The notes beneath the pieces are model-generated. The model was not told where the DNA came from and did not search any database. It saw only the letters and a list, made by a program, of their open reading frames with translations. Below are positions 33,054 to 62,140 of a DNA stretch of 64,000 nucleotides, in pieces (positions within the stretch are counted from its first letter, which is position 1; each line of letters opens with the position of its first letter). Origin of the DNA: Sphingomonadaceae bacterium. GTDB lineage: Bacteria > Pseudomonadota > Alphaproteobacteria > Sphingomonadales > Sphingomonadaceae. Position numbers and translations under genes: made by a program. Where the stretch lies: NCBI GenBank assembly GCA_016000085.1, contig JAECRT010000005.1, positions 47,493-111,492 of the forward strand. The letters run 5' to 3'.

Positions 33054-34244
33054 ATGAGCGGGATCGGCGCCGAGCGCACCCGCGCGATCGCGGCCAAGGT
33101 CGAAGCCTTCGTCCGCGATGTTGTGGTCCCCTATGAACATGATCCACGCCGCGACCATCATGACTGCCCCAGCGAGGAACTGGTCGCCGAGTTGAAGGAA
33201 AGGGCGCGGGAGGCCGGTGTGCTGACCCCTCATATTCTGGATGACGGCAGTCACCTGACCCAGCGGGAAACCGCCATCATTCTTGCGAAAAGCGGCCTGT
33301 CGCCACTGGGTCCGCTTGCGTGCAACACGGCGGCCCCCGACGAGGGCAACATGTATCTGCTGGGCAAGGTCGGCAGTGCAGATATCAAGGAACGCTTCCT
33401 GAAGCCGCTGGTCGAAGGCAAGGCCCGTTCCGCTTTCTTCATGACCGAGCCAGCGGCCGAGGGCGGCGCGGGATCGGACCCATCGATGATGCAGACGACC
33501 TGCCATCAGGACGGCAATCACTGGGTCATCAACGGGCGCAAGGCGTTCATCACCGGGGCCGATGGCGCGGGCATCGGCATCGTCATGGCGAAATCGCAGG
33601 AGGGCGCCTGCATGTTCCTGGTCGATCTGCCCGACCCGGCGATCCGCATAGACCATGTGCCCAACACGATCGACAGTTCGATGCCCGGCGGCCATGCCGT
33701 TGTGACCATCGACAATCTGCGCGTGCCAGCGGACCAGATGCTCGGTCATGCAGGTGAAGGGTTTCAATATGCACAGGTGCGCCTCAGCCCCGCGCGGTTG
33801 TCGCATTGCATGCGGTGGCATGGCGCGTGCGTGCGCGCGAACGAGATCGCAACCGACTATGCCAACCGCCGCATGGCGTTCGGCAAGACGCTGATCGATC
33901 ATGAGGGCGTGGGCTTCATGCTGGCGGAAAATCTGATCGACCTGAAGCAGGCCGAACTGATGATCGATTGGTGCGCGGACGTGCTGGATACGGGATCGCT
34001 GGGCACCGCCGAAAGCTCCATCACCAAGGTGGCGGTGTCCGAAGCGTTGATGCGCGTCGCCGATCGCTGCGTTCAGGTGATGGGCGGCGCGGGCGTGACT
34101 AACGACACGATCGTCGAGCAGGTCTATCGCGAAATCCGCGCCTTTCGCATCTATGACGGCCCGACCGAGGTTCATAAATGGAGCCTGGCGAAGAAGATCA
34201 AGCGGGACTGGAAAGCGGCGCAGGCGCAGAAGGACAAGCCATGA
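33054..34244 (+). CDS. Acyl-CoA dehydrogenase (ACAD10/11-like)
   Basis: NTAAPDEGNM, FFMTEP, INGRK.FITGA, QVRLSPARLSHCMR, FRIYDGPTEVH. Confidence 0.92.
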   Translation: MSGIGAERTRAIAAKVEAFVRDVVVPYEHDPRRDHHDCPSEELVAELKERAREAGVLTPHILDDGSHLTQRETAIILAKSGLSPLGPLACNTAAPDEGNMYLLGKVGSADIKERFLKPLVEGKARSAFFMTEPAAEGGAGSDPSMMQTTCHQDGNHWVINGRKAFITGADGAGIGIVMAKSQEGACMFLVDLPDPAIRIDHVPNTIDSSMPGGHAVVTIDNLRVPADQMLGHAGEGFQYAQVRLSPARLSHCMRWHGACVRANEIATDYANRRMAFGKTLIDHEGVGFMLAENLIDLKQAELMIDWCADVLDTGSLGTAESSITKVAVSEALMRVADRCVQVMGGAGVTNDTIVEQVYREIRAFRIYDGPTEVHKWSLAKKIKRDWKAAQAQKDKP

Positions 34245-35308
34245 GCGCCGTGGGCGAGGACGCCAATGTCGGCACGACGGCAGTACGCGACGCCTATCGG
34301 TTCGACGAGGCCGCACTGGCGCGCTGGATGGCCGCGCATGTGGAGGGCTATGCCGGGCCGCTGCGCGTCGAGCAGTTCAAGGGCGGGCAGTCCAACCCAA
34401 CCTACAAGCTGGTCACGCCGGGCCGCAGCTATGTGCTGCGGCGCAAGCCACCGGGCGATACGCTGAAAGGCGCGCACGCCGTGGATCGCGAGGCACGGGT
34501 GCTGACGGCGCTGGGCGGCGCGAATTTCCCGGTGGCGCGGGTCTTTGGCCTATGCACCGACGACAGCGTCATCGGTAGCTGGTTCTACGTCATGGACATG
34601 GTCGAAGGGCGGGTCTTCTGGGACGCGACCTTCCCGTCCGTCGACCGCGCGGAGCGACCCGCCTATTTCGACGCGATGAATGCGACGATCGCGCAGTTGC
34701 ACGGCATCGACTATGCGGCGATCGGGCTGGCCGACTATGGCAAGCCGGGCAATTATTTCGCGCGGCAGATCGGCCGATGGTCCCGGCAATATCTGGAGGA
34801 TCAGGATGCCGGGCGCGATGCCGACATGGACAGGCTGATCGCCTGGCTGCCCGACCATATTCCGGCGGGCGAGGACAACAGCATCGTCCATGGCGATTTC
34901 CGTTGCGACAACATGATATTCCACCCGACCGAGCCGCGCGTGTTGGCAGTGCTGGACTGGGAATTGTCGACGCTGGGCCACCCGCTGGCGGACTTTGCCT
35001 ATCATGCGATGATGTATCAGATGCCGCCCGATATCGTCGCTGGGCTGGGCGGAGTGGACATCGCCGCGCTGAACATCCCGGCAGAGGCGGACTATGTCGC
35101 GGCCTATTGCGCGCGGACCGGGCGAACCGGCATCCCCAACTGGGATTTCTACATCGCCTTCAACTATTTCCGGCTGGCGGCGATCTTCCACGGCATCAAG
35201 GGGCGCGTCATCCGGGGGACGGCGGCGTCCGCCCATGCCCGCGAACGCGCCAAGGCGCTGCCCCGCCTGTCCGCACTGGCGCGGCTATCGATGGAGAAAT
35301 GCACATGA
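34241..35308 (+). CDS. APH/choline-kinase-like phosphotransferase (ACAD10/11 kinase-like)
   Basis: QFKGGQSNPTY, YVLRRKPPG, AHAVDRE, HGDFRCDN, VLDWELSTLGHP. Confidence 0.92.
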   Translation: MSAVGEDANVGTTAVRDAYRFDEAALARWMAAHVEGYAGPLRVEQFKGGQSNPTYKLVTPGRSYVLRRKPPGDTLKGAHAVDREARVLTALGGANFPVARVFGLCTDDSVIGSWFYVMDMVEGRVFWDATFPSVDRAERPAYFDAMNATIAQLHGIDYAAIGLADYGKPGNYFARQIGRWSRQYLEDQDAGRDADMDRLIAWLPDHIPAGEDNSIVHGDFRCDNMIFHPTEPRVLAVLDWELSTLGHPLADFAYHAMMYQMPPDIVAGLGGVDIAALNIPAEADYVAAYCARTGRTGIPNWDFYIAFNYFRLAAIFHGIKGRVIRGTAASAHARERAKALPRLSALARLSMEKCT

Positions 35309-36096
35309 CCGACGCTCTCGTACTGGTCAGCGTGGATGGTCCGATCGCCACGCTGACGCTGAACCGCCCGGATGCGGGCAACACCCTCAATCAGGCGCTG
35401 GCCGACGCCCTGCTCGATGCCGCGATCCGTTGCGACAGCGACCCCGCCATCCGTTGCGTGGTGCTGACCGGCAAAGGCAAGCTGTTCTGCGGCGGCGGCG
35501 ACATAGCCTCTTTTGCCGAGGCCGGTGACGCCGTGCCTGCCTTCCTCAGCAGGCTGGCAGGCACGCTGCATATGGCGGTGAGCCGGTTGCTGAGGATGGC
35601 CAAGCCGTTGCTGGTGGTCGTCAACGGTCCGGCGGCGGGCGCTGGCCTTAGCCTCGCCATAGCGGGCGATGTCGTGATCGCGGCGCAATCCGCGCATTTC
35701 ATCGCCGCCTATGGCAGCGTGGGCCTGACGCCCGACGGCGGCATGTCATGGTTGTTGCCGCGCCATGTCGGCCTGCGCCGGGCGCAGGAGATCATCCTGA
35801 CCAACCGCAAGGTTTCGGCCGAAGAGGCCGCTGCGATCGGCATGGTGACGCGCACCGTGCCCGACGACCAACTGGCCGCAGAGGTGGCGAAGACGGCGCG
35901 GATGCTCGCCGATGGGCCGACCGGCGCCATCGCCGGCGCCCGCGCGCTGCTGCTGGAAAGCTCCCATAGCTCGCTCGAAGGCCATCTGGAACGCGAGACG
36001 CGCAGCATCGCGACGGCCGGCGGCAGCGCCGAATGTCGCGAAGGCGTCGCGGCGTTCCTTGGCCGGCGCAAACCCGATTTCTCAGGAGAAGCATGA
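35305..36096 (+). CDS. Enoyl-CoA hydratase/isomerase
   Basis: LTLNRP, FCGGGDI, VNGPAAGAG, GLTPDGG, EGV.AF..RRKP.F. Confidence 0.92.
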   Translation: MTDALVLVSVDGPIATLTLNRPDAGNTLNQALADALLDAAIRCDSDPAIRCVVLTGKGKLFCGGGDIASFAEAGDAVPAFLSRLAGTLHMAVSRLLRMAKPLLVVVNGPAAGAGLSLAIAGDVVIAAQSAHFIAAYGSVGLTPDGGMSWLLPRHVGLRRAQEIILTNRKVSAEEAAAIGMVTRTVPDDQLAAEVAKTARMLADGPTGAIAGARALLLESSHSSLEGHLERETRSIATAGGSAECREGVAAFLGRRKPDFSGEA

Positions 36097-36097
36097 C

Positions 36098-38256
<2,159 letters not shown>

Positions 38257-38265
38257 AGCGACAGC

Positions 38266-39249
38266 CTATTCGGCCGCTTCCAGCCTCGGCTCCGGTGCAT
38301 TCAGGCCGAGGCGACCAAGCAGATCCGCATCGGACGCCTGACCCGCATTGGGCGTGGTGAGCAACCGGTCGCCGGTGAAGATCGAGTTCGCCCCGGCAAG
38401 GAAGCACAGCGCCTGTCCCGCCTCGCTCATCGTTTCACGCCCGGCGGACAGGCGAACCATGGTGTCGGGCAGCACGATGCGCGCGGTGGCGACGGTGCGC
38501 ACAAACTCGATCTCGTCGATCGGCGCGCCTTCCGCATCCAGTTGCGCGTCGCCGATCGGCGTTCCGGCGATAGGCACCAGCCGATTCAACGGGACGCTTT
38601 GCGGATGTTGCGGCAGGGTCGCCAGCGCATGGATGAAGCCCACCCGCTCGCTGCGGCTTTCCCCCATGCCCATGATGCCGCCGCAGCAGACGTTGATGCC
38701 CGCGTCCCGCACATGGTCCAGCGTATCCATCCGGTCCTGCCAGACGCGGGTGGTGACGACCCGGTCATAATATTCCGGCGCGGTGTCGATATTATGATTG
38801 TAATAGTCGAGCCCCGCTTCCGCGAGCCGCGCGCTCTGGTCCGCCGTCAGCATACCAAGCGTCATGCATGTTTCCAGGCCCATCGCCCGCACGCCCTTCA
38901 CCATCGCGACGATTATGGCCATGTCGCGATCCTTGGGCGAACGCCATGCCGCGCCCATGCAGAAGCGTTCGCTGCCCGCCGCCTTCGCTTCGCGCGCCGC
39001 AGTCAGCACGGCGTCGACCGCCATCAATTTGCTGGCTTTGAGACCCGTGGCGAAATGAGCGGACTGACTGCAATAGCCGCAATTTTCGGCGCATCCGCCG
39101 GTCTTGATCGACAGCAAGGTCGATTGCTGCACATGGTTGGCCCGATGATGGGCGCGATGCACGGTCTGCGCCTGGAACAGCAGGTCGGCGAAGGGCAGGT
39201 CGAAAATCGCGGCGATCTCGTCGCGAGTCCAGTCGGTGCGGATGGTCAT
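38266..39249 (-). CDS. bioB: Biotin synthase
   Basis: [17 protein letters not shown] (radical SAM CxxxCxxC), [37 protein letters not shown]. Confidence 0.97.
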
Positions 39250-39263
39250 GGCAGATATGTCCT

Positions 39264-40007
39264 TCAGGCCATCAGCCCGCCGCCATTGGCGTGCAGGATC
39301 TGGCCGGTGATGAAGCTAGCGCGGGGCGAGGCCAAAAAGAGGATGGCTTCGGCGATCTCAACGGTTTCGGCCAAACGGCCGAGCGGCAGCGCTTGTGTCA
39401 CTGTCCTGACCGCGCCGGTGGTGTCGGACGCCATGAGCGCATCGACCGTTTCGGTGCGGGTCGGCCCGGCGGAAACGGCGTTGACGCGGATCGAGGGCGC
39501 GCCTTCCAGCGCCAGCGTGCGGGTGAAAGCCTCCACCCCCGCCTTGGCGGCGGCATAGACCGACAGGCCCGGCGTGGGCAAACGGGCGGCGGTGGACGAT
39601 ATGTTGACGATCGCGCCGCCCCTTTCGCGCAGGATGGGAAAGGCCGCGCGGCACAGCATGACCGTGCCGGTCAGGTTGGCCGCGATGGTGTCGGCGTACA
39701 GGGCGTCGGTCGTCTCCTCGATCAGCGCGGTCGGGAAGATGCCGGCTATATTGGCGAGGATGTCGAGGCTCCCGCCATGCGCGATCGCCGCGGAGACGGC
39801 CTGCGTTGCGGTATCGGCCTGCGCAATGTCGCCCGCCACGATCGTCGCCGCCGCGCCCAGACTGTCCGCCGCCGATCGCAGCGCTGCTGCGTTCCGGCCG
39901 ACCAGCACCACATGCGCGCCACGCTCCACCAGCAACCTGGCGACAGTCAGGCCGATGCCTCTGGAGCCGCCGGTCACGATGGCGGTCTTGTCCGAAAATT
40001 CCCCCAT
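39264..40007 (-). CDS. Short-chain dehydrogenase/reductase
   Basis: [32 protein letters not shown]. Confidence 0.93.
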
Positions 40008-40017
40008 CGCGCTTCGC

Positions 40018-40395
40018 CTATCCGTTGATGTTGCGATGCCGCGTGCGTCGATCGTCGATCACCAGCCGCACGCTCTGCTCGCCCTTCAAGCCGCACATGT
40101 CGGCATAGACGACATGCTGGCCGTGCAGTCGCGACCAGCCGATATCGGCCAGTTGCGCGATATGCGTCCCATGGTCGACATAGAGCCAGCCACCCACGCC
40201 CGCCAGTTCCACCACCAGCATGGCCGCAATCCCCGCCCGGACACGCGGTCGCCGCAGCCATACGGCCGCACGGGTGAAGATCGTATCCGCCGCCTCACCC
40301 TCCGGCACTGGGGCCAGACCCCAGAATATCGCCCAGCGCCGCAGCATCGCCATCGCCTGGGCGACCAGAAAGGCGGCGATGAGGCAGCAGGCCAT
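40018..40395 (-). CDS. Hypothetical small membrane protein
   Basis: Start overlaps the upstream stop (TGATG); two hydrophobic stretches; fills the gap inside the operon. Confidence 0.6.
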   Translation of the reverse strand: MACCLIAAFLVAQAMAMLRRWAIFWGLAPVPEGEAADTIFTRAAVWLRRPRVRAGIAAMLVVELAGVGGWLYVDHGTHIAQLADIGWSRLHGQHVVYADMCGLKGEQSVRLVIDDRRTRHRNING

Positions 40396-42320
40396 CAGGC
40401 CACCGGCACGATCGTCAGCGGCGTGCGACCAGCAAGCGCAACGGTCAAACGCGCCTTACCGTCCATGCCCGCCGTAAAGCGATCGTCCGTCTCGATAATG
40501 CGATAGCTGCGCCCCGGCACCAGCCGGTCCAGGCTGATCTGGCTCTGTATATCGCCCGCGCCGGGATGCAGCACCAGTTCCAGCGCCACTCCGTCCGTCA
40601 CTGCCCGGCCGACAATGACGTCGGGATAAGCGGCATCGGACAGGATCGGTCCCCTAGCCCAGGCGTCGGGCAGGCCGCGATTGACCATGTCGCGGATCGT
40701 GTTGCGCCCGCCCCAGGCCTGCGACGCGGCGACGCCTTCGCCCGAACGCTGGTCGATCGCCTTCATCGTCGCTTCGACGATCGGATCGTCACCCATTTCC
40801 AGCGCCGCCCAGAGCGTCACCATCAGCGGGTTGAGTTCGGGCCAGCGTGAAAAGTCCGCAGGCTTGCGCGTGTCCCAGCCCAGCGGCAGCAGGCGGAAAT
40901 CGAGCGACCCGTCCGGCTTCACGCTCATGAAATCCTGCTTCATCACTTCCCACAACCGTTCGGCGCCAGCAGGATCATAGGGAGTCATGAAGCGGACGCC
41001 CCATGTTTCGCCGAACAGGCCGGACAGGCTGGGCACCTGAAAGCCGAAGGGGGATGACGTGCAAACCTTGATGCGGCCATCGGCCATCATCATTTCTTCT
41101 TCCATCGTCCGGTCGAACCGGTCGCCGACCTGCGCGATATAATCGGTGCCGTGGCGGGTATCATGCAGCGACAGGGACGTGCGGCCAACGAGATTGCACA
41201 TCGAATAGATCCAGCGCGGTTCGCACGGGAACCAGCCCAGATCATAGCGTTTGAAATTCTTGACCACCTCGTCCAGCATCGTCGCGTGGCTGTAGGGGAA
41301 AGCGGTCTTTTCATCCCAACGGAAGGTCAGTGAACCGGGCGCGGCGAAGGGCGATGTTCCGCTGGCGGTTTCGAACAAGCCCAGCGAGACGCCCAAAAAG
41401 CCCGACAGCATGATATTGTCGGTCGTCACCGGGTTCTTTTCGACCCGGAAATTGCCCCACAGGCTTTCCCAATACCAGTAGTTCCAGGTTTTGCGGTCGA
41501 TATGCTTGCGGATCAGGTTTTCCTGCGCCGTGTTGAGATAGCCATGGAAGGCGGGCGTGCGGGTATATTGGCCCAGCGCCAGATTCCAGGACATGGTGCA
41601 GATCTGGTAGCGCAGCGCGCCGTCCTGCCATGTGTCTTCGGTGGAAAAGCCGTTCCAGCTGTCGACCGGCTGCAAGGCGAGATCCAGCATGCGGCGGAAC
41701 TCGGCCACCTGCGATGGCGGCATTTCCGGCGCGGCTTCGATCGGCCCATCGCGCATCACCGGTTGGGTCTTGGCGAGGATGGCGTTGAGTTCCGCGCCGC
41801 GCGCCTTGGCCGCGACAAATGCCTTCCTGCGACCGAGCGCCAGCCAGCCGTGCAGCGCCAGGACCACGCCGGGGATCGCCCATTCCATCCAGCTGACGCC
41901 CGTGCGCCCCTCGATCCATGCAGCGGACAGCAGCGCCGTGCCGACCATGACCGCCGGTGGCCCCAGGATCACACCGCGCGCCCACCAGATGAACATGATA
42001 ACCGCGAAGGCGATCACCGACACCACCGCGCCGATGATGCCGACTGCATTGCCCGCATAAAGGAAGCCCGCGCCGGGGAAGATGAGGCCCAGGCCAAACG
42101 CCTTCCACTGGGCGCTCATGCCCAGCAGCAGGGGCGCAATCCCGATCAGGAAGACCACCCCCAGCAGCGCGTAGAAGCGATATAACCGCCGGGCCGTCAA
42201 GCGGCCGTGCAATGTCGTGCGTTCCGGTATCAGGGGAATTTTGTCGACCAGCGGGCGCAACGTCGGCGCGGCATCGTCGCTGGGAAAATCCATTTCCAAT
42301 GGCAGTGTCCGCGCGGTCAT
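40395..42320 (-). CDS. Membrane-anchored linalool dehydratase/isomerase-family enzyme (Lis/LinD-like)
   Basis: N-terminal TM bundle followed by LRYQI, W.YW, NPV..DNIMLSG, FPCEPRWIYSMCN and HDTRHGTDY, paralleling LinD ENIMY.G, CEP....QCN and DRLHGTDY. Start ATG 42320 has an AGGAGAGG RBS. Confidence 0.8.
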   Translation of the reverse strand: MTARTLPLEMDFPSDDAAPTLRPLVDKIPLIPERTTLHGRLTARRLYRFYALLGVVFLIGIAPLLLGMSAQWKAFGLGLIFPGAGFLYAGNAVGIIGAVVSVIAFAVIMFIWWARGVILGPPAVMVGTALLSAAWIEGRTGVSWMEWAIPGVVLALHGWLALGRRKAFVAAKARGAELNAILAKTQPVMRDGPIEAAPEMPPSQVAEFRRMLDLALQPVDSWNGFSTEDTWQDGALRYQICTMSWNLALGQYTRTPAFHGYLNTAQENLIRKHIDRKTWNYWYWESLWGNFRVEKNPVTTDNIMLSGFLGVSLGLFETASGTSPFAAPGSLTFRWDEKTAFPYSHATMLDEVVKNFKRYDLGWFPCEPRWIYSMCNLVGRTSLSLHDTRHGTDYIAQVGDRFDRTMEEEMMMADGRIKVCTSSPFGFQVPSLSGLFGETWGVRFMTPYDPAGAERLWEVMKQDFMSVKPDGSLDFRLLPLGWDTRKPADFSRWPELNPLMVTLWAALEMGDDPIVEATMKAIDQRSGEGVAASQAWGGRNTIRDMVNRGLPDAWARGPILSDAAYPDVIVGRAVTDGVALELVLHPGAGDIQSQISLDRLVPGRSYRIIETDDRFTAGMDGKARLTVALAGRTPLTIVPVA

Positions 42321-42365
42321 CTTGCCTCTCCTCATGTCCCCGTTTCGATCGGGAGTCTCGATATT

Positions 42366-42394
42366 ATCGTAGGACGATTGCGTTCGACGTGCAA
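42366..42394 (-). promoter_or_regulatory. Sigma70 promoter TTGCAC-17-TACGAT overlapped by operator ATCGT-agg-ACGAT
   Basis: -35 at 42394-42389, -10 at 42371-42366, palindrome at 42366-42378. Confidence 0.7.
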
Positions 42395-42412
42395 CCTTCT
42401 AGCGCCCAAGGC

Positions 42413-42437
42413 GGGCGGCGCTTCGGAAGCGCCGCCC
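42413..42437 (-). terminator. GC-rich hairpin after the TonB receptor gene
   Basis: GGGCGGCGCTT/AAGCGCCGCCC stem; the U tail is weak. Confidence 0.5.
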
Positions 42438-42452
42438 CAGGGGAGGGTTGGG

Positions 42453-44807
42453 TTACATATGCCAGCTGACCTGGATGCCATAGGTGCGCGGCATGCCGGC
42501 AAAGCGCGAGATCGACGCCAGATTGTCCTGCACATTGGTCCAGTAATAGACGTTGCCGACATTGCGGACGTAGATGCCTGCCCGCACATTGCTGTTCGGG
42601 AATTCCAGCCCGGCGCGCAGGTCGATCAGCGTATAGGCCTTTACGTTAAAGCGCGGATCGGCATCCACAAAAGCGGTGGTGGTGTTCGCCAGCGCGGTCG
42701 TCGTCTTGCTGTTATGCGTCGCCGAAACGCCGATATAACCTTCCATCGATCCGCTGAGCGCCGCCTGATATTCGACATCGGCGACGGCGGTCAGCTTGGG
42801 CGCGTAAGGGAATTTCTGACCCGAAAAATTGCGCAGGTCGCCAAAGGCGTCGAAACCTTCAAATTCCTTGATCTTGGTATTGATGTAGGTGGCACCCAGA
42901 CTGACACGCAGGCCGTCGACCGGACGCCCCACGATCGATCCCTCGACGCCCCAGATGCGGCTCTTGGGAATTTGCACCAGCCCGTCGAGCGTGCCGAACG
43001 TCGGGTCCGGCTTACGACCGCGAAGCTGCTTGTCCTTATAGTCATAGTAGAAGCCGGCGATCGCATATTCGATCCTGCGGTCCATCAATGGTCCCTTGAT
43101 GCCCAGTTCATAGGCCGTGACCGATTCCTGCTTGACCGGCTGATAGCCCGTGTAGCTGGAAACCGATGCCGTCGGGAAACTGCCGGACTTGTAGCCGCGC
43201 GCGACGCGCGTGTAGAGCAACATCCCGCCGTCGGTCTTGTAATTGGCCCCGACGTTCCACGAGACATTGTGCTCGTTGAGCTTGTCGAACAGAGCAGGGT
43301 CGAAGATCTCCGGGAAATTCTGCGTGAAGGTGATGCAGCCGCCCGGCTGAACATTGGTACCGAACAGCGTGTTCCACCATATCGCCGTCTGGCCGCCAAA
43401 GTCGTTGGTGCAGCCTTCGAAGTCGCGCTTGCTGTCGGTATAGCGGATGCCGCCGATCAGCGTGATGTTCGGCGTGATCTTATATTCCGCATTGGCGAAA
43501 GCAGCGAGGTTCTTCACATCCTGGCGTGAATAGTTGAACGTCAGGACGCCGCGCGGCGCACCCGGAATCATCCACAGCGGGTTGGACGAAGGCCCTTCGC
43601 TGAAATTGTAGAAGAGCCGGTCGTAGGTCTTGGACTTGTTGTAATTGCCGCCGATGATGAAGTTCAGATTGTCTAGGGTGCCGGTGAGGCGGATTTCCTG
43701 CGCAAAATCCTTGATATAGCCCGTCGTGTTGGTGTCGACCGATGCATAGGTCGTTCCGTCGAAATCCTGCACCGAGTCCGTCTTGTAGTGCGAATAGGCC
43801 GAGATCGACGTCAAGGTCAGATTGTCATTGAGGTCCAGGTCGGCGCGCAGGCTGGCTTGCCAGAAACTGTCGTCACGGGCGGGACGGCGGCCGAACACGC
43901 CATAGCCCCAATCGGCCGCGCGTGGGTTCATCGGGCTACGCGGGTAATTTTTGAAGTTGGTGGCGTCCGGGCTGCCGCAGGTGCCCTCGGTCGATCCGGC
44001 GCAATTATCCGACACGATCTGCGCCGCCTGCGTGTCGCCCTTGTCGCGCCAGCCATTGACGTTGAGCAGGAACTTGAGGCGGTCGCTTGGCTGCCAGTCC
44101 AGCAATATGCGGCCCTGTAGCATGTCCTGCTTGCCCAGGTCGTCCGACCGAGTGAAGCTTTTTTGCCAGGTGCCCGACTGGATCGTGCGGACGGCGACGC
44201 GGGCCTTGAGCGTGTCGCTCATCGGCCCGCTGACATAGCCCTGAACATCATAGGTGGAAAAGCGACCGAAGCTGGCAGTGGCGCCCGCATCCAGTTCATT
44301 GGTCGGCTTGGCGACGATATAGTTGATCGCGCCGCCGGTCGTGTTCTGGCCGAACAGCGTGCCTTGTGGCCCCTTGAGAACCTCGACCCGCTCGATGTCG
44401 AACGCCGCGCCGCGCGATGGCGCGCTGAACGGGAGCGCGACTTCGTCGGTATAGACCGCGACGGTCGGCGCGGCCGACAGGGTCGTTTCATAGAAGCCGA
44501 TGCCACGGAGCGTATAGACCGGCGTGTTGAATGGCGACGGCTGCACCGTCAGGCCGGGCACGATCTTGCCCAGGTCGGTCGGCGACGTGATGCCGCGCTG
44601 GATCAGCGTGTCGCCCGTTTCCGCTGTGATCGACAGGCCAACGTCGGATAGCGACTGTTCGCGCTTGTTGGCGGTGACGATGATGTCGGCATAGCTGTTG
44701 TTGCCAGCGCCCGCCGTCTCCGCTTCTGCTCCGCCTGCCCATCCCGTCATGGCCACCAGCGAAACGCCGACGCACAACGATAGAGTGCTTGTCTTGTTCA
44801 TGCCCAT
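42453..44807 (-). CDS. TonB-dependent receptor
   Basis: Signal peptide, DIIVTANKREQ TonB box, FDIERVEVLKGPQGTLFG.NTTGGAIN plug motif, GYKSG, PRTYG. Start ATG 44807 has a GGAGAAGG RBS. Confidence 0.95.
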   Translation of the reverse strand: MGMNKTSTLSLCVGVSLVAMTGWAGGAEAETAGAGNNSYADIIVTANKREQSLSDVGLSITAETGDTLIQRGITSPTDLGKIVPGLTVQPSPFNTPVYTLRGIGFYETTLSAAPTVAVYTDEVALPFSAPSRGAAFDIERVEVLKGPQGTLFGQNTTGGAINYIVAKPTNELDAGATASFGRFSTYDVQGYVSGPMSDTLKARVAVRTIQSGTWQKSFTRSDDLGKQDMLQGRILLDWQPSDRLKFLLNVNGWRDKGDTQAAQIVSDNCAGSTEGTCGSPDATNFKNYPRSPMNPRAADWGYGVFGRRPARDDSFWQASLRADLDLNDNLTLTSISAYSHYKTDSVQDFDGTTYASVDTNTTGYIKDFAQEIRLTGTLDNLNFIIGGNYNKSKTYDRLFYNFSEGPSSNPLWMIPGAPRGVLTFNYSRQDVKNLAAFANAEYKITPNITLIGGIRYTDSKRDFEGCTNDFGGQTAIWWNTLFGTNVQPGGCITFTQNFPEIFDPALFDKLNEHNVSWNVGANYKTDGGMLLYTRVARGYKSGSFPTASVSSYTGYQPVKQESVTAYELGIKGPLMDRRIEYAIAGFYYDYKDKQLRGRKPDPTFGTLDGLVQIPKSRIWGVEGSIVGRPVDGLRVSLGATYINTKIKEFEGFDAFGDLRNFSGQKFPYAPKLTAVADVEYQAALSGSMEGYIGVSATHNSKTTTALANTTTAFVDADPRFNVKAYTLIDLRAGLEFPNSNVRAGIYVRNVGNVYYWTNVQDNLASISRFAGMPRTYGIQVSWHM

Positions 44808-45200
44808 CGTCCTTCTCCCAAATATCGCGCCCGCTTGTTCCGGGTCGCCTTCATGATCGGTGCGAAAAGGCCGCCATGATCGCGTCATGGCAGGCCGCAA
44901 ATAGCTGCATTTCAGGGGTGGCGGTCACGCCACAGCCGCCCACTGCGAGAATGACCCGCGCGCGATCCCGCGGACTCGCCCTGCCCTTGATGGCCAGCGC
45001 GCCCGCGGGCAACGCCGAGGCGCCTTGCGCCCGTGGCGGCAAGCAGCATCCGCGCCGAATAACCGGACAGACAGGTCAGCAAGCTTCTCATGCGCATGGG
45101 TCTTCCTCTCAAGATGGCACGCCTGTCTTATCGCAGGTCGCGTCCAGGTGCCCTGATTGCCCGGACGCCCTTGTTTCCACAGCTCAGCTTGTTCGTCAAT

Positions 45201-45213
45201 ATCGTTTGACGAT
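45201..45213. promoter_or_regulatory. Operator ATCGT-ttg-ACGAT between the TonB receptor and gntR
   Basis: Same palindrome. Its reverse complement AAATCGTcaaACGATATTGACG matches the context at 54925-54946. Confidence 0.65.
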
Positions 45214-45320
45214 TTTATCGGAGAAAAACGCCCAATCAGGAAGTTCGAGTCATTGCACCATCATATGGACGACACGCGCGCGCGGCGGTATTGCCTGACC
45301 TAAAGGATAATGGATCGACA

Positions 45321-46058
45321 ATGACCAAAGCCGCCGTAAAGCTGACCCCCGCCTCCGCAGCCCAGAAGCCGGGAGACAAGCCGCTTCCCGTCGCCGCGGA
45401 CAGCGAAAGCGCTACCGACAAGGTTGCCGAAGCGATCACCCAGGGCATCCGCACCGGCATATTCGTGCCCGGCCAGCACTTGCTGGAGCCGGACCTGACG
45501 CGCCGATTGGGCATCAGCCGCGGCTCGTTGCGTGAGTCGCTCAAGCATTTGGCGGCCGCCGGGATCGTCACCCTGAACCGCTATCGCGGGGCGTATATCG
45601 GCCTGCTCGACCGCACGGCATCGCTTCAGCTGCTCGATACGCTGGAGCCGTTGGCGCGGCTGGCGGCGCGCCTTGCCGCCGAAAATTGCACGACGCCTGC
45701 CGCCCGCGCGCAGATCGAACAGGCGATCGCCGATCTCGATCGCGCCGCGCGATCGGGCAACCGCGCCCATTATCTGGAATCGCGCCGACGCTTTTATGAC
45801 GCGATGATCGATCTGGGCGGCAACCGCGAACTGGCGCGCGTCATCCCCCTGTCGCGCACCGACCTGTTTCGCGCCCAGATCGAGACAGTGCAGTCCGATA
45901 CCCAGCGCAAGCGACACGCGTCGGGCTATGGCCCCATTGCGAAAGCGATCATCGCAGGCGACGCGAAAAAGGCCGACCTGGCGGTCAAGAAGCATTTCGA
46001 CGGCACGCGCAAGACCATGGCGGAACTGCCGGAAAACATATTCCCCAGCATGACCTGA
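45321..46058 (+). CDS. GntR (FCD) family transcriptional regulator
   Basis: IRTG.FVPGQHL.E..L..RLGISRGSLRE.L..L...GIV wHTH and a C-terminal FCD domain. Confidence 0.9.
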   Translation: MTKAAVKLTPASAAQKPGDKPLPVAADSESATDKVAEAITQGIRTGIFVPGQHLLEPDLTRRLGISRGSLRESLKHLAAAGIVTLNRYRGAYIGLLDRTASLQLLDTLEPLARLAARLAAENCTTPAARAQIEQAIADLDRAARSGNRAHYLESRRRFYDAMIDLGGNRELARVIPLSRTDLFRAQIETVQSDTQRKRHASGYGPIAKAIIAGDAKKADLAVKKHFDGTRKTMAELPENIFPSMT

Positions 46059-46103
46059 CCATGCATTTTCATCCAGCCAGGATCCGTCGGCACAAGATTT
46101 AGC

Positions 46104-46132
46104 TGGACGAAATCGTCAGACACTTTTAGCCT
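46104..46132 (+). promoter_or_regulatory. Putative promoter TGGACG-17-TAGCCT with a degenerate operator ATCGT-cag-ACACT in the spacer
   Basis: Upstream of the ethD operon. Confidence 0.5.
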
Positions 46133-46175
46133 TCCATCATGACCTCGACGAATCGAGGCATGTGAGGAGAGCTGC

Positions 46176-46490
46176 ATGCTGCGCGTATCGGCCGTCTATC
46201 CCAACAGTGACGGCAGCCATTTCGATGGCGAGGATTATGTGCAGCGGCACGCGCCCTTCGCGCACGGCCTGCTCGATCCTTTGGGCCTCAAGGGCTTGCG
46301 CGTCACGCTCGGCCACGCCGCGCTCGACGGCGCGCCCCCGCCCTATTGGGCCATCAGCGAACTGATCTTCGACAACCGCCCCGCCTTCGACGCGGCCATG
46401 ACCGCATGTGGCGAAGCGCTGTTCGCGGACGCCCCCAATTTCACCAACGTCGCGCCGGTGTTGCAGGTCAGCATCCTGGCCGAAAGCTAA
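46176..46490 (+). CDS. EthD family protein
   Basis: V.A.YP..DG..FD...Y...H.P, L.FD....F.AA, D.PNFTNV.P..Q.S; GAGGAG RBS. Confidence 0.85.
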   Translation: MLRVSAVYPNSDGSHFDGEDYVQRHAPFAHGLLDPLGLKGLRVTLGHAALDGAPPPYWAISELIFDNRPAFDAAMTACGEALFADAPNFTNVAPVLQVSILAES

Positions 46491-46515
46491 AAATCCCACT
46501 ATTCTGGAGAGACTG

Positions 46516-47700
46516 ATGCGGAACTTCGTGCGGCATGAAATGGACGATATCGGCCAGCTGATCGGGTTGGACGAAATGCTGAACCACCAGATCGTCGATA
46601 CTTTTTCCTCCACCGCCACGGCGGACCTGGGCTGGACCGAGAAGATCTGGACCGCATTGGTGCGCAAGGACGGCAGCCTGTCGATCGATTTCGGCCTCGG
46701 CCGCTATCATAATCGCGGCGTGATGGACGGATGGGCCGCGGTCGCACGCGGGGTCGAGCAATGGACGGTGCGCGCCAGCCGGGAACTGCGCGACGATCCC
46801 ACCGAAACCACCGTCGGCCCGCTGACCTACGAGATCATCGAACCGCTGCACAAGGTTCGCTATGCGCTGGCCAAGAGCGACGCGCAGCCGATCGCGTTCG
46901 ACATCACCTTCACGTCGGAAATGCCGCCCTTTTTCGAGGATCGGCACAAGCAGCGCGAACGGGATGGCTTCCGCATCGGGTCCGATGTGGTGCGTTATCA
47001 CCAGGTCGGCACACCGTCGGGCTGGGTCGAGATCGACGGCGAGCGGATCGAGGTGAAGCCCGAGGAGTGGACCGAATATCGCGACCATAGCTGGGGCCAG
47101 CGGCTGGACGTGGGCGCACACAATGCCGATGTCCGTCCGTCCTCCGATTTTGGCGACGTGAAATTCGGTGAAGGCGAATTCGTGCTGCTCTGGAGCCCGT
47201 TCATGCTGACCGCACCCAATGGCGAGAAGCACGCATATCATTTCTATTATATGGCGAAGCAGGGCCGGATTTTCTATTCGTCGGGCTATCGCAACCATCC
47301 CGATGGTCGGCAGGAAAAGGTCGCGCGGGTGCGGCCGGAACTGAAATTCGACGACAAGACCCGGCGACTGCTGGGTGGTCAGGTGCATTTCGACATGTTG
47401 CAGGGCGGCACGCACACGGTGGAAGTCGAAGTGGCGGGACCAACGGCGGTGCATCTGGGGCCAGGCCTCTATCTGGGTTTCGACGGCCGAAAGCATGGGG
47501 CGTGGAAAGGCAAGCTGGAGGTCGAGGGCGAGAAGTTCGACGACACGCTGGACCTGCCGACCCTACGTCGCATCCGCCAGTTGCGCGATTGCCCGATCCT
47601 GGTGCGCGAGGGAGACGCGACCGGCCATGGCATCATGGAAACCATCATCCATGGCGCCCATCCAGAACTCGGCCTGACCGCCGAAAACTCGCTGATCTGA
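46516..47700 (+). CDS. Conserved-type hypothetical protein (beta-rich, RDHSWG motif)
   Basis: 394-aa ORF with GGAGAG RBS and typical codon usage; WTEKIW, RYHQVG..SGW, YRDHSWGQR. Confidence 0.8.
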   Translation: MRNFVRHEMDDIGQLIGLDEMLNHQIVDTFSSTATADLGWTEKIWTALVRKDGSLSIDFGLGRYHNRGVMDGWAAVARGVEQWTVRASRELRDDPTETTVGPLTYEIIEPLHKVRYALAKSDAQPIAFDITFTSEMPPFFEDRHKQRERDGFRIGSDVVRYHQVGTPSGWVEIDGERIEVKPEEWTEYRDHSWGQRLDVGAHNADVRPSSDFGDVKFGEGEFVLLWSPFMLTAPNGEKHAYHFYYMAKQGRIFYSSGYRNHPDGRQEKVARVRPELKFDDKTRRLLGGQVHFDMLQGGTHTVEVEVAGPTAVHLGPGLYLGFDGRKHGAWKGKLEVEGEKFDDTLDLPTLRRIRQLRDCPILVREGDATGHGIMETIIHGAHPELGLTAENSLI

Positions 47701-47713
47701 AGGAGGCGACACC

Positions 47714-48697
47714 ATGGCGCGCGACACCGACCGTCTGGCGGAAGGGCTGCGCGCCTTTCTGCCGCGTGGCAGCGGCATTACCGGGGTCAAAACCCTGTCG
47801 GCCGGGCACAGCAACGAAACCTATCTGGTCGAAGGGCTGAACGAGATATTGCGCATGCCTCCGTCGGAGGAAGGGCTGTTGCCGCCTTATGACATGGCGC
47901 GGCAACATGCCGTCCTGTCGACGGTCAAGGCGCATGCGCCAGCCGTGCCGCTGCCCAGGATGCTGGAATTATGCACCGATCCGGCCGTCATCGGCGACGC
48001 GTTCTTCCTGATGGAATGCGTGCCGGGCGAAGCGTTCGAATATGTCACGCCCGACTGGGTCAAGGCCGATCCAGTCGGCGTACCCGACAGCATATGCCGC
48101 CAATGGTTCGACGCGTTGATAGGGCTGCACACCATGCCGGTCGCCGACATGCCGCCGGGCGGCCGCACGGTGCAGGCAGAGGCGCAACATTGGCTGGATG
48201 TGTCACGATCCGCAGAGGCGACCAGCGACCTGATCGGCGTACTGGAGGATCTGGTCGCGCGGCCGCCGCGCCCATCCGGCGCGCCGACGCCGGTGCATGG
48301 CGACCCCAAGCATGGCAACTGCCTGTGGCATGAAGGCCGCCTCACCGCGCTGCTGGACTGGGAAATGGCGCAGATTTCGGAACCTTTGCTCGACCTTGGC
48401 TATGTCCTCATGTTCCACGATCAGGGTGAAGCATCGCTAGCCGATGCCGGGTTCGAGCAACCTGGCTGGTGGTCGCCGGACAGGATGATTGCGGAGTGGG
48501 AAAAGGGCACGGGGCGCACGGCGGTGGACGTTGCGCGCTATACCGTGCTCGGCCAGGCCAAGGTCGCGGCGATCATTGCGCTTGGCGCCTATCTGTTCAC
48601 CAGCGGCAAGGTGCTGGACGCGCGTTTCGAAGCGTTCGGTGCGGTGCTGCCCGCCTATACCAAACTACTGGTGCAAAGGGCGATGGCGGCCGCTTGA
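47714..48697 (+). CDS. APH-like phosphotransferase family protein
   Basis: GHSNETY, ILRMPP, LLPPYD, VHGDPKHGN, LLDWEMA..EPLLDLG. Confidence 0.9.
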   Translation: MARDTDRLAEGLRAFLPRGSGITGVKTLSAGHSNETYLVEGLNEILRMPPSEEGLLPPYDMARQHAVLSTVKAHAPAVPLPRMLELCTDPAVIGDAFFLMECVPGEAFEYVTPDWVKADPVGVPDSICRQWFDALIGLHTMPVADMPPGGRTVQAEAQHWLDVSRSAEATSDLIGVLEDLVARPPRPSGAPTPVHGDPKHGNCLWHEGRLTALLDWEMAQISEPLLDLGYVLMFHDQGEASLADAGFEQPGWWSPDRMIAEWEKGTGRTAVDVARYTVLGQAKVAAIIALGAYLFTSGKVLDARFEAFGAVLPAYTKLLVQRAMAAA

Positions 48698-48764: not shown

Positions 48765-51200
48765 TCACCCTTTGGTCGGCAAAGCCCAGGCGATCACCTG
48801 ATCCCCGATCGGCGTCTTCATGAAATGATGGCCGCCGGTCATCAGCACCACATATTGGCGGCCATCCTGCTCATAGACCATCGGTGTAGCCTGTCCGCCC
48901 GCCGGTAGCGCGGTCTGCCACAATATCTTGCCGGTCTTGAGATCGATCGCCTTGAACAAGTCGTCGGTGGCCGCAGCGATGAAGATGAGGCCGCCCGCCG
49001 TAACGACCGCGCCGCCATTATTGGGCGTGCCTATGGTGAAAGGCAGGTAGCTGGGAATACCGAACGGGCCGTTCTTGCGCGCGGAGCCGAACGGACGATC
49101 CCAGATCGTCTTGCCGGTGGCGATATCGATCGCCCGGATGCCGCCATAGGGAGGCTGTTTGCACAGCATCCCGGTGAACGGCATCTGCCATCCGGCATTC
49201 ACGTCGATCGCATAGGGGGTTTCGGCCTGGGGGTCGCCCGCGCCTTCGGCATGGGGCTTGCCGCCCCGGCTGGCGTTGCCGCCGCCGTCCGTCTTCCTTA
49301 CGTCCGATTTGGCCATGTCGGCCTTCTGCTCGCGGGTGAACCAGCCCTTCTTGTCGGCTTCGGCGCGGGGCACGAGGCGGACATAATTGGGCATGTCGTT
49401 ATAGTTGGCGACGATCACGCCACGCGCGGGATCGACGGCTACGCTGCCCCAGTCCGTGCCGCCATTATAGCCGGGATATTGGATCGAATGGCGATCCACT
49501 TCCGGCGGCGTGAAGAAGCCTTTGTAGCTCGCCCGACGGAAATTGATGCGGCAGATCATCTGGTCGATCGGCGACATACCCCACATGTCGGATTCGGTCA
49601 GCCGATCCTTGCGCAGCGTCTGCCAGAGCGAGACGATCTGCGTGGGCGCACGCTGTTCAGGTTCGACGCCGCCACCCGGCGCCTTGATCATTCCAATGGG
49701 CGTCAGCGGCTTGCCGGTCGCGCGGTCCAGCACATACATATCGCCCTGTTTGGACGACACCAGCAGGGCCGCCTTGCCCTTATAATCGATCAGGGTGGGC
49801 TGGCTGCCGAAGTCATAGTCCCAGACATCGTTCTTGACCGCCTGAAACGTCCAGCGCGGCTTGCCGGTCGTGACGTCCAGCGCCACGATGGAGGTGGCGA
49901 AGCTGTTTTCCAACGGCGAACGCATGGTGCTCCAATAATCGACCGTGCTGTTGCCCATCGGCAGATAGACCAGGCCCAACGCCTCGTCACCGCTCGCGAT
50001 CGTCCACATATTGGGCGTGCCGCGCGACCATTGCTGTCCTTCGGGCGGATAGGTGTTCCATTCGGGATGCTTCATGTCCCAGGCAAAGCGCAGCTTGCCA
50101 GTGACGGCGTCGAAGCCTTGGATCACGCCCGACGGTTCCCAGCGCTGTTGCCCGTCCAACGTCTGGTGCCCGGTGACGGCAATGCCGCGAATGATGACCG
50201 GGGGCGAATTGATCGAGACGAGCCCGGGAAATACGTGGCCCATGCCGATCTTGGCATCGACTTGGCCATTGGTGCCAAAATCAGAGCAGGGACGGCCGGT
50301 TTCAGCGTCGACCGCGATGAGGCGCGCATCCAGCGTCCCTTCGATCAGCCGCTTGGCGCAGAGCGATCCGGGCGCGGCATTCGGGACGGCATAATAGCTC
50401 ACCCCGCGGCAGGCCGCCGTATAGGGTATCCATTCATTCGGCACCTTGGGGTCGAAGCGCCAGCGTTCCTTGCCGGTCGCCGCGTCCAGCGAGATCATGA
50501 TATTCTTGGCGGAACAGAGATAGAGCGCGTTGCCCACCTTCAACGGCGTGGTTTCCGCGCCATATTGGGCCGCGGCGGCTGCATCGCTCGGCATGTCGCC
50601 GGTGTGCGCCAGCCAGACCTGTTTGAGTTGCGCGACATTGCCCGCATTAATCTGGGTCAGCGGCGAATAGCGCTGCGCCGCGCCAGTGCCACCATAAGCG
50701 GGCCAGTCGCTGCCAGCCGCCATGCCGGACGGGTCCATCATCCCCACAGAATTCTGTGCCGGGAGCGCAGCGACCGAGACGTCCCGCGTCCCCAGAATCG
50801 TGAACAATAGCGCCGTCGCCACGACCGTCACACCAACGCCGATGCCCGCAAACTTCCAGCGATTGGCCGCCCGCGTCAGCGTCGGCATCACCAGGAAGGT
50901 TGCGATAAGCAGCACGATCGGCGCGATGATGCGCGGCACCAATGCCCAGACCAGATTGCTGCTGGCATCGAAAAAGGCCCAAAGCAGCGTGACCGCCACA
51001 ACGGCAATGTAAACATGCGCGCCCAGCATTCGGCTGCGCATCAGCATTACCCCGGCGAAGAGCATCGCGATGCCCGCCAGCCCGTAATAGAGCGAGCCGC
51101 CCAGCGTCGCGAGCCATACGCCACCCCCGGTCAGAACAATGCCGATGGCGGCAATGATAAATCCCAGGAAGATGGCGGGCCAGCTACGAAATTTGGGCAA
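48765..51200 (-). CDS. Membrane-bound PQQ-dependent dehydrogenase, glucose/quinate/shikimate family
   Basis: Five N-terminal TM helices (LGGSLYY), RYSPLTQIN, ACRGVSY, TPNMW, WDYD..SQP, GG..WG, PPYG, LPAGGQATPM.Y. Confidence 0.92.
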   Translation of the reverse strand: MPKFRSWPAIFLGFIIAAIGIVLTGGGVWLATLGGSLYYGLAGIAMLFAGVMLMRSRMLGAHVYIAVVAVTLLWAFFDASSNLVWALVPRIIAPIVLLIATFLVMPTLTRAANRWKFAGIGVGVTVVATALLFTILGTRDVSVAALPAQNSVGMMDPSGMAAGSDWPAYGGTGAAQRYSPLTQINAGNVAQLKQVWLAHTGDMPSDAAAAAQYGAETTPLKVGNALYLCSAKNIMISLDAATGKERWRFDPKVPNEWIPYTAACRGVSYYAVPNAAPGSLCAKRLIEGTLDARLIAVDAETGRPCSDFGTNGQVDAKIGMGHVFPGLVSINSPPVIIRGIAVTGHQTLDGQQRWEPSGVIQGFDAVTGKLRFAWDMKHPEWNTYPPEGQQWSRGTPNMWTIASGDEALGLVYLPMGNSTVDYWSTMRSPLENSFATSIVALDVTTGKPRWTFQAVKNDVWDYDFGSQPTLIDYKGKAALLVSSKQGDMYVLDRATGKPLTPIGMIKAPGGGVEPEQRAPTQIVSLWQTLRKDRLTESDMWGMSPIDQMICRINFRRASYKGFFTPPEVDRHSIQYPGYNGGTDWGSVAVDPARGVIVANYNDMPNYVRLVPRAEADKKGWFTREQKADMAKSDVRKTDGGGNASRGGKPHAEGAGDPQAETPYAIDVNAGWQMPFTGMLCKQPPYGGIRAIDIATGKTIWDRPFGSARKNGPFGIPSYLPFTIGTPNNGGAVVTAGGLIFIAAATDDLFKAIDLKTGKILWQTALPAGGQATPMVYEQDGRQYVVLMTGGHHFMKTPIGDQVIAWALPTKG

Positions 51201-54841: not shown

Positions 54842-54904
54842 GCCTCTCTCCTGTATCAAACCGAGTCTTCGCTCGCCCTTCGATGTGCCGGGTCCGGCAT
54901 CGCC

Positions 54905-54969
54905 TGTCAAGCATCTGACAGATGAAATCGTAGGACGATATTGACGGAAACTTTCGACTCCATTAGCGT
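54905..54969. promoter_or_regulatory. Divergent promoter region with operator ATCGT-agg-ACGAT
   Basis: Minus-strand TTGACA at 54910-54905; operator at 54927-54939, identical to 42366-42378; plus-strand TTGACG (54941)-17 nt-TAGCGT (54964). Confidence 0.7.
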
Positions 54970-55027
54970 GGCATCCAAAGAAATATGCTTCCGGAGAGAA
55001 TGTGTGACGTCCAAACCGACCAACCCT

Positions 55028-56481: not shown

Positions 56482-56505
56482 GGAAAGCCCCCTCCCCGGC
56501 TTCGC

Positions 56506-59282: not shown

Positions 59283-59314
59283 GGGGCGAACCCTTTCGGT
59301 TGGAGCGGCACGCC

Positions 59315-60772: not shown

Positions 60773-60777
60773 GGGCG

Positions 60778-62133: not shown

Positions 62134-62140
62134 GGCGCGA

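Follow-up and report, generated by a model that had tools for sequence, protein, structure and literature searches.

A membrane-anchored homologue of linalool dehydratase/isomerase in a conserved gene island of sphingomonads

The stretch of DNA considered here (the window, 64,000 nucleotides, positions 47,493 to 111,492 of the forward strand of contig JAECRT010000005.1, assembly GCA_016000085.1, Sphingomonadaceae bacterium) belongs to a Sphingobium-like metagenome-assembled genome (MAG), the assembly of which is 83% complete. It carries a gene of the Ldi family, called below the Ldi-like gene, and the product of this gene is, by sequence and by fold, a membrane-anchored homologue of two enzymes: the linalool dehydratase/isomerase LinD of Castellaniella defragrans 65Phen (EC 4.2.1.127; PDB 5G1U, 5HLR, 5I3T) and the linalool isomerase Lis of Thauera linaloolentis 47Lol (EC 5.4.4.4/5.4.4.8, ENO87364; Marmulla et al. 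2016, PMC4791888). The gene stands in a conserved order of a TonB receptor, the Ldi-like gene, a small membrane protein with conserved cysteines and histidines, and a short-chain dehydrogenase/reductase (SDR). The features of the locus are listed in Table 1.

Table 1. Features of the locus; positions are counted from the first letter of the window
Feature	Position	Strand	Remarks
Ldi-family, Lis-type membrane-anchored enzyme	40395..42320	-	641 aa; PF18566, AlphaFold2 model, VIA, motifs
Small protein with two transmembrane helices, 125 aa	40018..40395	-	start overlaps stop of Ldi-like gene (TGATG)
Classical SDR, 247 aa	39264..40007	-	Pfam adh_short_C2, E 1.6e-57
Biotin synthase BioB	38266..39249	-	TIGR00433, E 1.6e-114; 14 nt past SDR stop codon
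Operator-like palindrome ATCGTAGGACGAT	42366..42378	.	over -10 of promoter-like site upstream of Ldi-like gene
GC-rich stem-loop, 11 perfect pairs, no U-tract	42412..42438	-	after TonB receptor stop
TonB-dependent outer-membrane receptor	42453..44900	-	Pfam Plug and TonB_dep_Rec_b-barrel
Second operator copy ATCGTTTGACGAT	45201..45213	.	receptor/gntR divergent region; same relative place in orthologous loci
GntR/FCD (FadR-subfamily) regulator	45291..46058	+	Pfam GntR and FCD; divergent from receptor
Operon of EthD-family, Rv3169-family and APH-fold kinase genes	46176..48697	+	TIGR02118, NF053593 (E 1e-104), Pfam APH
Third operator copy	54927..54939	.	between short-PPDK operon and surE/gntR2; equivalent upstream of orthologous PPDK operons
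Short-PPDK module and carboxylase set	51353-62214	-	plus 54941-56481 (+)

The Ldi-like gene is a real one. The open reading frame 40395..42335 is free of stop codons, and its GC content at third codon positions (0.81) is typical of the real genes of the window. An alternative ATG at 42335 would give a protein of 646 residues, the numbering of which is used throughout this text. ATG 42320 is the likelier start, because GGAGAGG stands 5 nt ahead of it, a database protein of identical sequence has 641 residues and the alignment of close orthologues begins at residue 5. The Pfam model Ldi (PF18566) matches residues 242-532 with E 1.2e-72, far beyond chance (245.5 bits, cut-off 26.1), and in NCBIfam no model covering the protein was found. 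The sole solved relatives retrieved by sequence are the LinD entries (E 3e-8 in a single-sequence search), and a profile of 74 family members reaches LinD with E 1.4e-29. The motifs NIMLSG, CEPRWIYSMCN and HGTDY begin at residues 307, 371 and 395 respectively; two of the four cysteines of the protein (246, 371, 380 and 425) belong to the second motif and stand nine residues apart. HGTDY was rejected as a family signature, since it varies even among close orthologues and is rare in distant members.

The AlphaFold2 model, built on a 74-sequence alignment, reaches a predicted local distance difference test score (pLDDT) of 94.1 and a predicted template-modelling score of 0.92. It consists of three parts: the helices of a membrane domain (45-189), an all-helical barrel (200-560) and an eight-strand beta-sandwich (562-646). 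In a comparison with VIA the barrel was placed on ten LinD structures with Z 32.9-33.6 and a root-mean-square deviation of 2.3-2.5 A over 311-317 residues at 20% identity, model residues 200-560 falling on LinD 17-365. Foldseek agrees on the LinD match (E 9e-11), and the next-best folds in VIA, cellobiose 2-epimerases and GH76 among them, are further (alpha/alpha)6 barrels with Z about 19. The initial annotation, made from the DNA letters, had proposed at this place a gene with an N-terminal transmembrane bundle and the three motifs named above, a relative of LinD and Lis with the LinD pair of cysteines, in a sphingomonad-like host, and had staked the proposal on an (alpha/alpha)6 barrel. All of this was found, the barrel as part of the predicted model, which superposes on LinD (Z 33.6).

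Residue equivalences to LinD were taken from HMMER alignments. Cys371 and Cys380 correspond to the catalytic Cys171 and Cys180 of LinD (Cys170 and Cys179 in other numbering), Met309 to Met125 and Gly294 to Gly107, and all four are kept; they are the residues which were mutated in the deposited LinD structures (C171A/S, C180A, M125A, G107T). The Glu-Pro after the first cysteine and the Asn after the second are common to both proteins as well. Across 74 diverse family members there is no variation at Cys371, Glu372, Pro373 and Cys380 and hardly any at Met309 and Asn381. The two cysteines are invariant also in 120 orthologue clusters, and nearly all of 149 cluster representatives have the patterns CEPxxxxxxCN and N[IV]MxxG, the latter with Phe, Tyr or Trp behind it. 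From the LinD superposition taken together with the alignment, the cysteine pair is predicted to lie in the pocket of the barrel. In LinD itself Cys170 and Cys179 must be reduced and each of the cysteine mutants is inactive, a disulfide between Cys48 and Cys101 forms an essential cap, and the active site is completed by a neighbouring subunit within the pentamer (PMC6600392).

There are also differences from LinD. LinD is a soluble, Sec-exported, periplasmic homopentamer of about 372 residues per chain, whereas the protein described here has no export signal and possesses, in place of the signal peptide, a membrane domain of about 170 residues, together with an additional C-terminal beta-sandwich and a barrel predicted to be cytoplasmic. 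In contrast to LinD with its capping disulfide, the protein has Asp280 (His in some orthologues) instead of Cys101, and the region of LinD Cys48 gives no sequence alignment with it. Furthermore, His129 of the LinD motif NIMYKGH is replaced by Phe313, and Asp174 after CEP is changed to Arg374. The loss of the histidine is a trait of the whole membrane-anchored branch, because Phe, Tyr or Trp occupies this position in almost all members. A literature search gave nothing usable on the roles of LinD His129, Asp39 and Tyr45.

Hydropathy peaks and AlphaFold helices place the membrane bundle at about 51-170. In the model the membrane helices span residues 45-70, 97-120, 125-140 and 150-189, with a short helix-turn-helix (75-94, a re-entrant loop) centred on the invariant Pro87. 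The number of Lys and Arg residues, averaged over 74 sequences, is 3.9 before the first transmembrane helix, 5.9 after the fourth and 0.1-0.4 in the loops between, and because of this positive-inside pattern both termini and the barrel are predicted to be cytoplasmic. Such a location would be consistent with the lost disulfide and with the need for free thiols. The membrane domain is probably more than an anchor, as it is conserved nearly as well as the barrel (majority-residue fraction 0.42 versus 0.48), and its residues G83, P87, G88 and G90 are almost invariant.

The architecture matches that of Lis, and it is by architecture, not by identity, that the protein is set beside this enzyme. Lis is 644 residues long, with four transmembrane helices in its first 139 residues and a cytosolic C-terminal domain, and it is encoded by a stand-alone gene (PMC4791888). 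Both proteins are thus of about 640 residues, as the initial annotation had noted (641 here, likewise with four transmembrane helices), both have the four-helix anchor within the first 140-170 residues or so, a predicted cytoplasmic Ldi-like domain and no Sec signal. Lis requires a reductant, and the conserved free cysteine pair of the present protein fits this. No Lis was present among the 393 proteins retrieved, which were screened for the termini MSNMES.../...KPGH and RGAK at 141, as deduced from published primers, and a search seeded with a Lis look-alike protein returned no Thauera protein. It could be supposed that the protein is simply a functional orthologue of Lis, that is a linalool/geraniol isomerase serving the breakdown of monoterpene alcohols, with the SDR in the role of geraniol dehydrogenase. 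The common length, membrane anchoring and Ldi barrel, the kept catalytic cysteines and methionine and the dehydrogenase gene which follows are in keeping with this supposition, to which we nevertheless give only a small chance: the stand-alone gene of Lis comes from an anaerobic monoterpene degrader, whereas the present gene is operonic and belongs to a regulon with a TonB receptor, kinases, a carboxylase and a GntR-type operator in an aerobic sphingomonad island, and the protein is a member of a separate clade with fixed residues of its own beside the catalytic motif.

This clade consists of orthologues at 63-91% identity (87-89% to three named Sphingobium orthologues). Their hosts are Sphingobium (S. 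limneticum, S. lactosutens), Novosphingobium (N. resinovorum, N. rosa, N. mangrovi, N. anseongense), Sphingopyxis, Croceicoccus, Blastomonas, Caenibius and Aquisediminimonas, and a few orthologues come from MAGs labelled gammaproteobacteria. In the tree the clade is monophyletic with support 1.0 and a stem of 0.65 substitutions per site; it forms a single full-length 50%-identity cluster and shares at most 45% identity with all other cluster representatives. Fixed substitutions were judged over the 120 orthologue clusters, at positions conserved differently elsewhere in the family. They are Thr235 (Gln in the rest of the family), Asn301 (Asp), Arg, Lys or His at 374 (Asn; Asp in LinD), Met415 (Phe), Lys491 (Asp), Ala493 (Gly) and Phe495 (Tyr). 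The deep separation of the clade, CEP-R/K/H in place of CEP-N and the fixed T235, N301, K491, A493 and F495 all stand against functional identity with Lis. Two of the changes gain a positive charge, two lose a negative one and one directly follows Cys-Glu-Pro, and because of this a different, perhaps more polar or anionic substrate of the clade is hinted at.

The Lis-type architecture is by no means rare. When 1.84 billion cluster representatives were searched exhaustively with HMMER, 864 relatives were found at E <= 1e-3 (266 at E <= 1e-30), most of them of about 640 residues and aligning end to end. A scan of one genome per GTDB species, built on an alignment of 12 sequences, confirmed relatives in 366 stretches, the number of species being at least 366. 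The hosts include Sphingomonadaceae, Caulobacteraceae, Mycobacterium, Nocardia, Nocardioides, Pseudonocardia, Maricurvus, Parvibaculum, Binatia and Myxococcota-type MAGs. A literature search for PF18566 and linalool isomerase gave no characterised member besides LinD and Lis; the initial annotation had likewise taken very few members to be characterised, and the architecture itself is common. The present protein is a further, previously uncharacterised member of the Ldi family and not something categorically new. PF18566 proteins of Actinomycetota, Binatia, Myxococcota and other Pseudomonadota align with it in full length at 30-45% identity, have the same three parts and the motifs CEPxWxYxxCN and N[IV]MxxG[FYW], and often have an SDR or a zinc alcohol dehydrogenase as the next gene, although their other neighbours differ. 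Among 37 distant paralogues at least 7 have an SDR-like or zinc alcohol dehydrogenase gene within 150 nt downstream, and this recurring pairing fits an alcohol as product or substrate.

The wide occurrence of the family in aerobes which are not known as terpene degraders, together with the integral membrane nature of the enzyme and its strongly conserved membrane domain, would also suit a non-catabolic task, namely the remodelling of the membrane isoprenoids or lipids of the host itself, e.g. (de)hydration of a hopanoid, carotenoid or polyprenol. This is regarded as distinctly unlikely. The distribution within Sphingomonadaceae is patchy, as any Ldi match was found in 10 and an orthologue in only 4 of 151 genomes, which is unlike a core lipid function, and the genes linked to this one are those of an uptake receptor, a GntR/FadR-type regulator and functions of beta-oxidation type.

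Behind the Ldi-like gene, in 36 of 43 orthologous loci, lies the gene of the small membrane protein. It is found also behind 36-39% identical paralogues in two other alphaproteobacterial MAGs, and among PF18566 members this small MxCC protein accompanies only alphaproteobacterial ones. Its model shows two transmembrane helices and a beta-hairpin (AlphaFold2 pLDDT 87), and the residues C3, C4, R19, W21, T38, E63, W70, H75, H78 and C101 are invariant in the alignment. It has no match in Pfam or NCBIfam, and its model no fold match in the PDB at E <= 0.001. Judging by the charge distribution, its Cys and His residues would be periplasmic. A complex prediction for enzyme and small protein gave a score of 0.00 with the partner poorly folded, which speaks neither for nor against binding of the two. 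The coupling of the Ldi-like gene to such a partner, its position directly downstream of the TonB receptor, the kept re-entrant loop (G83, P87, G88, G90) and a membrane domain about as conserved as the barrel could be taken to mean that the barrel chiefly binds or channels and, together with the membrane domain and the small protein, imports a hydrophobic compound from the periplasmic leaflet, catalysis being secondary or lost. Such a role is very unlikely, since the invariance of Cys371, Glu372, Pro373 and Cys380 and the near-invariance of Met309 and Asn381 argue for retained catalysis, and no transporter-like fold was detected.

The SDR gene starts 10 nt past the stop codon of the small gene and is found directly downstream on the same strand in 28 of 38 orthologous loci with enough flank. 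The product of the Ldi-like enzyme had been supposed to pass to an adjacent SDR within a catabolic operon. The SDR is indeed there and the surroundings are a conserved island; what had been overlooked is the small membrane protein gene in between, the loss of His129 and of the disulfide, and the fact that bioB is specific to this genome. For BioB no match was obtained in any of 80 related loci, and it was rejected as a conserved part of the module, being in the operon of this genome only. Placed at the operon end, bioB could supply biotin to the carboxylase of the island.

The Ldi unit appears to be regulated together with its surroundings. The window contains the exact palindrome ATCGT-N3-ACGAT three times, where 0.08 occurrences would be expected, and each time in a promoter region. 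In about 33 of about 40 orthologous loci the operator, exact or with one mismatch, lies upstream of the Ldi start at a distance of at most 200 bp. In the orthologous loci it recurs also in the spacer of GntR and receptor genes and ahead of the PPDK operon. In contrast, 37 loci of distant paralogues gave three such matches upstream, at 273-677 bp, and none within 200 bp, and it is also by the lack of this operator within 200 bp upstream of the gene that the PF18566 proteins of other lineages differ. A promoter-like TTGCAC-17-TACGAT upstream of the Ldi-like gene was read by eye; its second hexamer fails the rule of the consensus sigma-70 scan, which found no promoter in 38000-46300. The stem-loop behind the receptor gene (56-nt stretch, minimum free energy -27.4 kcal/mol, centroid with the stem alone -23.6, z -2.2) is possibly a terminator or processing site which parts the receptor from the Ldi unit. 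The receptor stands upstream of the Ldi-like gene in 29 of 43 orthologous loci, and its true start is likely the internal MGMNK signal peptide. A GntR regulator is present in 31 of the 43. The GT-N3-AC core of the operator fits the FadR/GntR operator pattern, and for this reason the divergent GntR/FCD regulator is the likely binder of the operator. The shared operator ties the Ldi unit to the GntR, receptor and kinase-like genes and to the biotin carboxylase module.

The divergent EthD, Rv3169-family and APH operon is co-conserved with Ldi-like loci in synteny, and the whole set of receptor, Ldi-like gene, small protein and SDR with the divergent GntR, EthD, Rv3169-like and APH genes is conserved in at least 8 named genera. 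This divergent operon matches the Rv3168/Rv3169 pair of Mycobacterium tuberculosis, on the function of which the literature search gave nothing usable. Farther on, the short-PPDK module comprises a short, barrel-less PPDK (PRK05878 type), a 201-residue protein, a 272-residue PEP-utilizer mobile-domain protein and a BCCP-like gene, and SurE and a second GntR lie beside it, as do a thiolase-like gene, a CoA ligase, a PYC_OADA-type carboxyltransferase and a biotin carboxylase; taken together they look like a kinase-plus-carboxylase route. Orthologous islands often contain in addition acyl-CoA dehydrogenase (ACAD), APH, thiolase and FabK-like reductase genes. In Aquisediminimonas the full island set is syntenic, and Caenibius has it in a rearranged order. 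Orthologues of the Rv3169-like and short-PPDK genes occur in exactly 5 of the 151 Sphingomonadaceae genomes, i.e. the four with an Ldi orthologue (G000, G039, G045, G082) and G029. This co-occurrence, in genomes which are related and few, is suggestive of the Ldi unit as a feeder module of the island.

Sphingomonads are known pollutant degraders, and a xenobiotic tertiary or benzylic alcohol might be what is dehydrated or isomerised, for instance 1,2-bis(4-hydroxyphenyl)-2-propanol, a 1-arylethanol or 2-methyl-3-buten-2-ol. One orthologue does come from Croceicoccus bisphenolivorans. The dozens of remaining hosts, however, are sphingomonads and MAGs from lakes, soil and groundwater without a link to bisphenol, oxygenase or P450 genes typical of such pathways were not seen among the conserved neighbours, and these neighbours are of the acyl-CoA type (ACAD, thiolase, CoA ligase, carboxylase), so that a xenobiotic substrate is highly improbable. 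For the vinylphenols, arylethanols and bisphenol A metabolite which the initial annotation had listed as substrates nothing speaks beyond that single orthologue, and the new substrate class which it had put forward is still a conjecture.

The best explanation of the locus, which is considered fairly probable, is that a Lis-type Ldi enzyme works in a module which feeds a conserved catabolic island of sphingomonads. The analysis shows that the protein belongs to the family and has its fold and its catalytic residues, and that synteny is conserved and the operator shared; the topology, the type of reaction, the sequence of steps and the kind of substrate are inferred. The enzyme would need no cofactor and would be held in the inner membrane by its four transmembrane helices and the re-entrant loop, with the barrel facing the cytoplasm, and a lipophilic allylic alcohol or alkene could reach the active site from the membrane. 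There the reduced Cys371 and Cys380 together with Met309 would perform acid/base chemistry by analogy with LinD and Lis, the reaction being presumably a 1,3-hydroxyl shift and/or the addition or removal of water. Expression would be translationally coupled to the small Cys/His membrane protein, the Ldi unit having, it seems, its own promoter and GntR-type operator. The SDR most likely oxidises (or supplies) the alcohol, and by oxidation of the product an unfavourable equilibrium could be pulled forward. The resulting carbonyl compound would then be processed by the island, with its TonB receptor, GntR, EthD/Rv3169-like/APH kinase and short PPDK-like kinase genes, biotin carboxylase set, CoA ligase and thiolase. 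An oily alcohol or alkene is a probable substrate because an enzyme related to LinD and Lis lies in a conserved, co-regulated breakdown island. Our best guess would be an allylic alcohol or alkene of isoprenoid type or with some other long chain, and the pairs farnesol/nerolidol and phytol/isophytol, which share the allylic pattern of geraniol/linalool, may be named as the most natural candidates.

Several points weigh against a catabolic Lis-type enzyme of this kind. Phe313 takes the place of LinD His129 and the position is aromatic family-wide, so the chemistry may differ in detail from that of LinD. The pocket of LinD needs a neighbouring subunit of the pentamer, and the model considered here is a monomer. 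The catalytic activity of the sphingomonad clade is itself predicted by analogy, and the closeness to Lis is one of architecture, not of measured identity. A small volatile terpene has no obvious need of a TonB receptor, and two Novosphingobium resinovorum loci are without GntR and kinase genes within 10 kb. Finally, the SDR has Gly-Arg after its second beta-strand, which by the SDR classification suggests NADP(H); this could make the SDR reductive and lead to another order of steps.

A more far-reaching proposal, which must be called unlikely, joins the enzyme, its re-entrant domain and the MxCC/His/Cys micro-protein into one membrane machine. A lipophilic alkenol or alkene delivered by the TonB receptor would be turned into an alcohol at the cytoplasmic face and by the SDR into a ketone or aldehyde. 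This carbonyl compound would be activated by a kinase (short PPDK or APH), carboxylated with the help of biotin, ligated to CoA and cleaved by thiolysis. If true, it would amount to a new way of entry, independent of oxygen, by which aerobic sphingomonads take up isoprenoid-type alkenols into metabolism, a previously undescribed route of carbonyl assimilation and a new substrate class of the Ldi family.

The family with the Lis-type architecture is large in aerobic bacteria, and only two Ldi-family enzymes were found characterised in the literature searched. The additional value lies in the residue signature of the clade, the coupled micro-protein and the conserved regulon, and with this regulon, its operator and a likely regulator the clade makes the physiological substrate findable by experiment. 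As cofactor-free hydration and dehydration of unactivated alkenes is sought in biocatalysis, enzyme discovery may reasonably turn to a clade whose pocket is altered (Arg after CEP, Lys491). The previously uncharacterised island around the gene has short PPDK-like kinases, a remodelled biotin carboxylase and an Rv3168/Rv3169-like pair which mycobacteria also possess.

Some minor observations concern the surroundings. An 811-residue membrane-type pyrroloquinoline quinone dehydrogenase gene (48765-51200, minus strand) lies between the APH and PPDK operons, a place at which it is absent in the orthologous loci examined. Genes for ACAD, an APH-fold kinase, thiolase and FabK-like reductase are found at 33054-38256 (plus strand), and this set stands near the Ldi gene in about a third of orthologous loci. 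Its pairing of ACAD with a kinase recalls ACAD10/11 and LvaA/LvaC, which act on 4-hydroxyacyl-CoA. Second full-length membrane-anchored Ldi paralogues, 31-37% identical and in unrelated contexts, are present in some Sphingomonadaceae (loci L099-L102), and one genome (G045) has both an orthologue and a paralogue. Lastly, in Acidimicrobiia and Actinomycetota MAGs and in Mycobacterium pinniadriaticum (L060, L063, L068) distant Ldi paralogues (34-40% identity) have a short-PPDK homologue (42-53%) and a gene like that of the 201-residue protein at a distance of 3-8 kb, and the association of Ldi and short PPDK may therefore recur outside sphingomonads.

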